From: Escherichia phage WPEC5 | Reading direction: 5' to 3' (one strand) | Sequence record: PV654397.1 | Length of the DNA: 64,000 nt | In this document: positions 5,965-6,048 of the stretch, in pieces | Layout: the number at the start of each line of letters is the position of its first letter | Numbering within the stretch: the stretch's first letter is position 1 | Made by a program: the position numbers and the translations under genes | The notes under the pieces: generated by a model | Databases searched by the model: none | What the model was told of the DNA's origin: nothing | What the model saw: the letters and a program-made list of their open reading frames with translations, nothing else

Positions 5965-6048
5965 AAAGTAATTATACATTTTATTGTACAATATAAAAAG
6001 GTCTTAAAAAGTAATTATACATTTTATTGTACAATATAAAAAGGTCTT
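5965..6048. repeat. tandem direct repeat, two identical 41-nt copies with 43-bp period
   Basis: aaagtaattatacattttattgtacaatataaaaaggtctt at 5965..6005 and 6008..6048. Confidence 0.85.

Follow-up and report, generated by a model that had tools for sequence, protein, structure and literature searches.

To understand how a perfect tandem repeat came to stand at the 3′ end of a phage gene, and what it means for the encoded protein, we examined positions 5965 to 6048 of the window, by which we mean the whole 64-kb stretch of DNA analysed here. The window derives from an Asteriusvirus (121Q/PBECO4-type) jumbo coliphage, the local genes lie on the minus strand, and the nearest record is Escherichia phage EC.P1 (99.7% over 5400-6800). 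Tandem Repeats Finder reports an array with a 43-nt period at 5965..6048 (2.0 copies, 100% matches, no indels, score 168), and a word search places the 41-nt word AAAGTAATTATACATTTTATTGTACAATATAAAAAGGTCTT at exactly two positions in the window, 5965-6005 and 6008-6048, which confirms the initial annotation of two identical 41-nt copies lying 43 bp apart. No third copy occurs in the window when up to 3 mismatches are allowed, and the word is absent from 100 dinucleotide-preserving shuffles, none being expected by chance. This is the sole strong tandem repeat of the window. A weaker one (20 nt x 2, 85% matches) at 4889-4927 falls in the overlap of the genes for a 135-aa and a 140-aa protein and adjoins a promoter-like site at 4934-4907. 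The strong repeat occupies the 3′ end of the minus-strand ORF 5981..6397, termed geneA here. On the gene strand, GTGA is followed by AAGACCTTTTTATATTGTACAATAAAATGTATAATTACTTT and TT, then by the second copy (AAGACC...ACTTT), AT and ATGATTGAGGTGTAAGTTG. The parts of the repeat are as follows.

6008 to 6048, minus strand: upstream 41-nt copy, encoding geneA K117-F130 (KDLFILYNKMYNYF) in the original frame; single-copy relatives align here.
6006 to 6007, minus strand: junction TT between the copies, completing with 6008-6048 the 43-nt unit AAGACC...ACTTTTT.
5965 to 6005, minus strand: downstream 41-nt copy, of which the first 21 nt specify RPFYIVQ in the +1 frame, ahead of the TAA stop.
5981 to 6007, minus strand: codons L131-Q138 and the TAA stop (5981-5983), R132-Q138 being the new 7-residue tail.
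5959 to 5964, minus strand: ATATGA, the marker of the Turkey3-type flank, untranslated in the window and the last codon plus stop of geneA in Turkey3-type single-copy genomes.

The unit AAGACC...ACTTTTT is exactly the one that is duplicated; in genomes of the 121Q/UE-S1/TH47 type the element is followed by TTATAA. The final 17 nt of the downstream copy (AATGTATAATTACTTT...) are untranslated.

GeneA stands in a run of minus-strand genes, of which the following are needed here.

6801 to 7754, minus strand: lysozyme gene.
6452 to 6784, minus strand: HPF/RaiA homologue (Pfam PF02482, Ribosomal_S30AE, E = 1.6e-10).
5981 to 6397, minus strand: geneA, encoding a 138-aa hypothetical protein of phrog_36582.
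5575 to 5946, minus strand: geneB, encoding 123 aa from a TTG start, with GAGG at 5953-5956, and identical to its Turkey3 counterpart.

Beyond geneB the same strand carries several further small genes and, after them, the gene for a CCA-adding enzyme. The geneA protein matches phrog_36582 over the full length of the family (E = 1.1e-65; residues 7-131 correspond to profile positions 2-126 of 126); this is the only PHROG that it matches, and its function is not known. The protein contains no Pfam domain, and a profile search returned one cluster only among 1.84 billion representative proteins, so geneA is an orphan family confined to Asteriusvirus phages. AlphaFold2, run on a shallow alignment, gave an unusable model (pLDDT 37.5). 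Paralogy of geneA with geneB or with the 140-aa protein was considered and rejected, the BLASTP comparisons being not significant. The HPF/RaiA protein is a homologue of ribosome hibernation factors and carries the labels 'sigma 54 modulation protein' or 'putative sigma 54' in relatives. The small-gene modules at 4318-5946 vary between relatives (loci L002, L005-L008 and L014): geneB and the 41-aa gene are missing together in the 121Q/BF17/A4 type, and the 135-aa, 140-aa and 40-aa genes in Turkey5/JNE01. Paralogy links the 40-aa protein with the 41-aa protein (phrog_34272; both end in DWLMGE) and the 135-aa protein with the 140-aa protein (phrog_20693). Rfam and tRNA scans of the window gave no matches.

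Since the period is 3 x 14 + 1, the second copy is read in a different frame, and translation bears out the earlier observation that the repeat alters the C-terminus. The geneA protein of the window ends in YNYFLRPFYIVQ (more fully VKDLFILYNKMYNYFLRPFYIVQ, that is, MYNYFL-RPFYIVQ), whereas the single-copy genomes Turkey3 and 121Q end in VKDLFILYNKMYNYFI (MYNYFI) and YNYFL, respectively. The first copy thus encodes the ancestral C-terminus unaltered, the TTA leucine codon is kept, and RPFYIVQ is added, a gain of seven residues with none lost. It had been proposed that the last ~22 residues are specified by the duplication. The 84-bp repeat does contain the last 22 codons; 15 of these (KDLFILYNKMYNYFL), however, are ancestral and unchanged, and only the seven of RPFYIVQ are new. 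The phrog_36582 profile ends at geneA residue 131 and leaves the final seven residues beyond it, in agreement with a seven-residue extension. The distance from the geneA stop to the geneB start is 12 nt in single-copy genomes and 34 nt in the window, the duplication widening this gap by ~22-24 nt. We infer that the tail has little or no effect on fitness.

The comparison with related genomes that the initial annotation called for revealed both one- and two-copy relatives. Two copies are present in four of the 34 GenBank phage records that hold geneA (EC.P1, BF17, vB_Ec-M-J and A4, whose origins are China, Poland, Ireland and one unstated source) and a single copy in the other 30. Copy state in the 34 records was judged from aligned spans, with a base-by-base check in 16 fetched loci, 12 of them single-copy. 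At least six further assemblies carry two copies (L018, L020, L022, L024, L025 and L026), among them metagenome contigs and whole phage contigs in E. coli assembly projects, and in a large protein collection the RPFYIVQ tail is found in 8 of 12 protein clusters formed at 90% identity. The duplication had been read as possibly a recent event; it is not private to this phage, the same TT-junction duplication recurring in these phage records and assemblies. The two-copy structure occurs on diverged geneA alleles and with different downstream flanks, and some carriers differ at single positions, EC.P1 by one substitution in the upstream copy and L024 by one in the downstream copy. In the Logan assembly L021 (SRR30543657, ~1915-1960), a 12-nt deletion in the second copy removes ATGTATAATTA and one T; the -10-like box is lost, and the seven-residue tail and stop codon are intact. 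A 461-nt query containing the element gave one match per phage record except for CMSTMSU, which gave two. The search for further carriers found no match in complete E. coli genomes or PLSDB plasmids, and the junction word occurs neither in JGI metagenome contigs nor in IMG/VR, where 121Q itself is the only representative of the group.

Four of the assemblies labelled Escherichia coli (GCA_973721985.1, GCA_011911785.2, GCA_025677605.1 and GCA_036253495.1, holding loci L018, L020, L022 and L025) contain complete phage-sized contigs of this genus, of ~352-359 kb, which suggests carrier-state infection or culture contamination. The CMSTMSU record (L003, MH494197), flagged UNVERIFIED, has fragmented CDS calls and single-base indels in this region (the element, for example, lacks one T); the indels are probably sequencing errors, and the record was therefore excluded from the conservation statistics.

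Seven of the two-copy loci (BF17, A4, L018, L020, L022, L025 and L026) consist of UE-S1/TH47/121Q-type sequence in which the 43-nt unit is exactly doubled (43+43), and the window departs from this form only in the 2 nt that follow its second copy, where it has the Turkey3-type sequence. Both marks of a simple tandem duplication were found, namely adjacent direct copies without intervening sequence and a single-copy state in close relatives, and the junction shows 1 nt of microhomology. Slippage between 9-nt direct repeats CTTTTTATA inside the unit, a candidate read by eye, was rejected since it would yield a duplication of 32 bp rather than 43 bp. Every two-copy locus has the TT junction and the AAAATG variant of the element, whereas single-copy elements comprise an AAACTG variant (121Q/PBECO4 group), a TACAAT variant (TH47) and a four-mismatch form (Turkey5/JNE01); this argues for a single duplication event that took place after the element had diversified. 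The 43-bp head-to-tail duplication is real and heritable, and we consider it probable that it had a single origin and was then spread by recombination. The second copy is nearly invariant in 12 loci despite its non-coding last 17 nt, which fits a young age and would equally fit selection on the DNA sequence.

From these comparisons we infer a single origin and a slippage mechanism, with the following course of events. In a parent genome whose geneA ended in ACTTT-TTA-TAA (121Q/TH47/UE-S1 type), replication slippage or unequal exchange at ~1 nt of microhomology would, most likely in one event, have doubled the unit. The ribosome would then translate the first copy as normal, keep the ancestral leucine codon and continue through the second copy in the +1 frame to TAA. 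Homologous recombination at the conserved 3′ end of geneA could subsequently have placed the duplicated allele onto other geneA alleles and downstream modules. Repeated gains with identical end points, or repeated losses, would produce a similar pattern.

The window itself carries the trace of such an exchange, as its second copy is followed by ATATGA-TTGAGG, the Turkey3-type flank, and not by TTATAA. Identities to three relatives change across the repeat. Compared with Turkey3, geneB and the 41-aa, 135-aa and 140-aa genes are 100% identical and the 61-aa gene 99.5%, with geneA at 81-89%. Compared with BF17, geneA is 98-100% identical and the 61-aa, 135-aa and 140-aa genes 90-97%, geneB and the 41-aa gene being absent. 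Compared with EC.P1, geneA is 100% and the 140-aa gene 82% identical. The bounds of the exchange interval are 6051 and 5964, that is, the repeat itself. These segment identities and bounds mark the window as a recombinant, which on its sequence is best read as a BF17/EC.P1-type duplicated geneA whose downstream copy contains the crossover to a Turkey3-type backbone. A4 points the same way: over the ~100 nt that precede the repeat it matches the window throughout, and both of its copies are identical to those of the window; farther upstream it differs at 6-13 positions per 50 nt. Two-copy loci have at least five variants of the downstream flank, each also found in single-copy genomes. The 41-nt element is the best-conserved part of geneA (mean pairwise identity 0.96 vs 0.70-0.92 elsewhere in the gene), and this high conservation makes it a natural site of homologous exchange.

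A different explanation for the scatter of copy states is that the locus is a copy-number hot spot, at which the 43-bp unit is repeatedly gained and, above all, lost between the 41-nt repeats, so that the two forms interconvert within lineages. Perfect direct repeats of 41 nt are good substrates for deletion, and two pairs of alleles (P0002/P0009 and P0006/P0012) are identical, flanks included, except for copy number and hence the tail, which makes frequent gain and loss conceivable. However, both single-copy twins, from samples ERR10789687 and SRR9693738, are Logan k=31 assemblies in which the repeat may have been collapsed: a collapsed path L-U-R is valid in the k=31 graph of L-U-U-R, so the twins are weak evidence for gain or loss. 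Furthermore, copy states track different geneA 3′ haplotypes in the finished GenBank genomes that were fetched, and a three-copy form was not seen. We therefore regard a hot spot as unlikely.

Improbable to a similar degree is the proposal that the 41-nt unit, which has a perfect -10 TATAAT, serves the downstream early genes as a promoter and that selection favoured the duplication for doubling or modifying this signal. Each copy does present this hexamer on the gene strand, a perfect -10 can fire when the DNA upstream of it is A/T-rich, and the element, besides being the best-conserved stretch of geneA, sits exactly at the point where the downstream modules diverge. Many backgrounds carry the duplicated haplotype, and other promoter-like sites of the region (4934-4907 and 6472-6444) are likewise placed within the 3′ end of the gene before them. 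The properties of the unit itself argue otherwise. Its best -35 at a spacing of 16-18 nt is TTTTTA (3/6), so that no hexamer with at least 4/6 matches lies at the distance from TATAAT required of a sigma-70 promoter. The consensus scan did not return this site, and the only hits that overlap the repeat have 9/12 matches and use other hexamers. Promoter-like hits in the region number 20 vs 22.1 in shuffles, and TATAAT occurs 69 times on the gene strand where 76 are expected from base composition. The single copy of TH47 has TACAAT, the natural variant L021 lacks TGTATAAT in its second copy, and codon constraint (M-Y-N-Y-F) would be sufficient for the conservation. Motifs predicted as promoters in the related phages CBB and GAP32 are RpoD-like, TGAAACG and ATAAATA (PMC5259590), and all are missing from the unit. 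RNA folding of 5935-6075 was not significant (z = -1.5) and gave weak A-U hairpins only, and a scan detected no terminator-like site in the repeat. With no usable -35, no enrichment of TATAAT and the loss in L021, the duplicated regulatory element that the initial annotation offered as an option is left unsupported.

The convincing sites of the same window look different, having a TTGAC -35 and a strong bias to the gene strand. Counting as strong those sigma-70-like sites in which TTGACA and TATAAT each have at most 1 mismatch and are separated by 16-18 nt, we found 56 on the minus strand vs 12 on the plus strand, a bias that fits a long minus-strand block of genes that would depend on host RNA polymerase. 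One such promoter-like site lies upstream of geneA:

6416 to 6472, minus strand: TTGACT-17-TATAAT (6472-6444) abutting a G+C hairpin and T-run (6443-6416), between the HPF/RaiA gene and geneA.

This arrangement is kept in 16 of 16 relatives, in which the loop alone varies. Because the predicted start falls within the 5′ arm of the hairpin, transcripts from upstream could terminate here and those from the 6472-6444 site read through. The site is likely to be the promoter of geneA and geneB and, judged by its motifs, has the look of a real regulatory signal in this genome.

It is similarly doubtful that the duplicated haplotype is common because it was selected, be it for an effect of the second copy on expression, for an effect of the RPFYIVQ tail or for a copy-number toggle. 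As one possibility, the second copy might act as a weak internal promoter or might uncouple translation of the downstream early gene from that of geneA. As another, the tail might alter the activity of this orphan early protein; as a third, high-frequency switching between one and two copies could constitute a contingency-type switch in a jumbo phage.

Less likely still is that two copies are ancestral and that the single-copy genomes arose from them by deletion. Mechanistically, a direct repeat is lost by deletion more easily than it is created by duplication, and the tail is present in the majority of the protein clusters. Yet the most divergent lineages (Turkey5/JNE01 and the 121Q/PBECO4 group) are single-copy with element variants of their own, all two-copy loci carry one variant, alike in both copies, and the PHROG family profile stops at the short form. 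Finally, an assembly or sequencing artefact, for which nothing speaks beyond its general possibility, has a very small chance of explaining the repeat, since the structure is shared by phages sequenced independently in several laboratories and countries and by metagenome and E. coli-project assemblies, on different alleles and flanks and in some carriers with point differences between the copies; these independent assemblies answer the artefact concern raised by the initial annotation, settle its proposed resequencing test for a single copy, and establish the variant as inherited and widespread.

Taken as a head-to-tail duplication of probable single origin, the 43-bp repeat is a real but ordinary structural polymorphism, common to a sizeable fraction of known Asteriusvirus genomes. 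It accounts for the existence of 137/138-aa and 130/131-aa forms of the orphan protein, which differ through a frameshifting duplication and not through sequencing error, and, since the same variant is present on several alleles and flanks, it is a clean natural marker of recombination among these jumbo coliphages. Its importance beyond annotation is small, and its uses are those of an annotation note and a recombination marker, together with the caution that k=31 assemblies may collapse a 43-bp repeat. If the tail or the extra copy did affect expression, the locus would offer a small, tractable case of regulatory or protein novelty arising by slippage.

Out-of-frame tandem duplications produced by replication slippage or unequal exchange have classical examples in phages T4 and lambda. 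The geneA duplication resembles these in that the unit is copied exactly and head to tail, the junction has practically no microhomology and the length is not a multiple of three, so that a new frame is entered and the end of the protein is rewritten. It differs in that the geneA C-terminus is fully kept and a short tail is added, and in that it is no laboratory mutant but a variant common in natural populations and found on many recombinant backgrounds. In modular phage evolution, conserved boundary ('linker') sequences occur at mosaic joints, and the conserved 3′ end of geneA likewise coincides with points of allele and module exchange; unlike a dispersed, dedicated linker, it is coding and present once per genome, and recombination at it is deduced from sequence mosaicism only. 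PeSL cassettes, which combine an early promoter with a stem-loop, mediate gene shuffling in T4-type phages. The repeat unit is similarly a short conserved element bordering small, variably present genes of early type, but it has no TTGACA-type -35 and no stem-loop, either within it or adjoining it, and is not dispersed, its two adjacent copies being the only ones in 64 kb. With the sigma-70 promoter (TTGACA-N17-TATAAT) the unit shares a perfect TATAAT on the gene strand, but not the -35, nor a TGn extension in register, and in a genome of 35% G+C it is background-like. The element of this locus that comes closer to a PeSL than the repeat does is the promoter-plus-hairpin cassette at 6416-6472.
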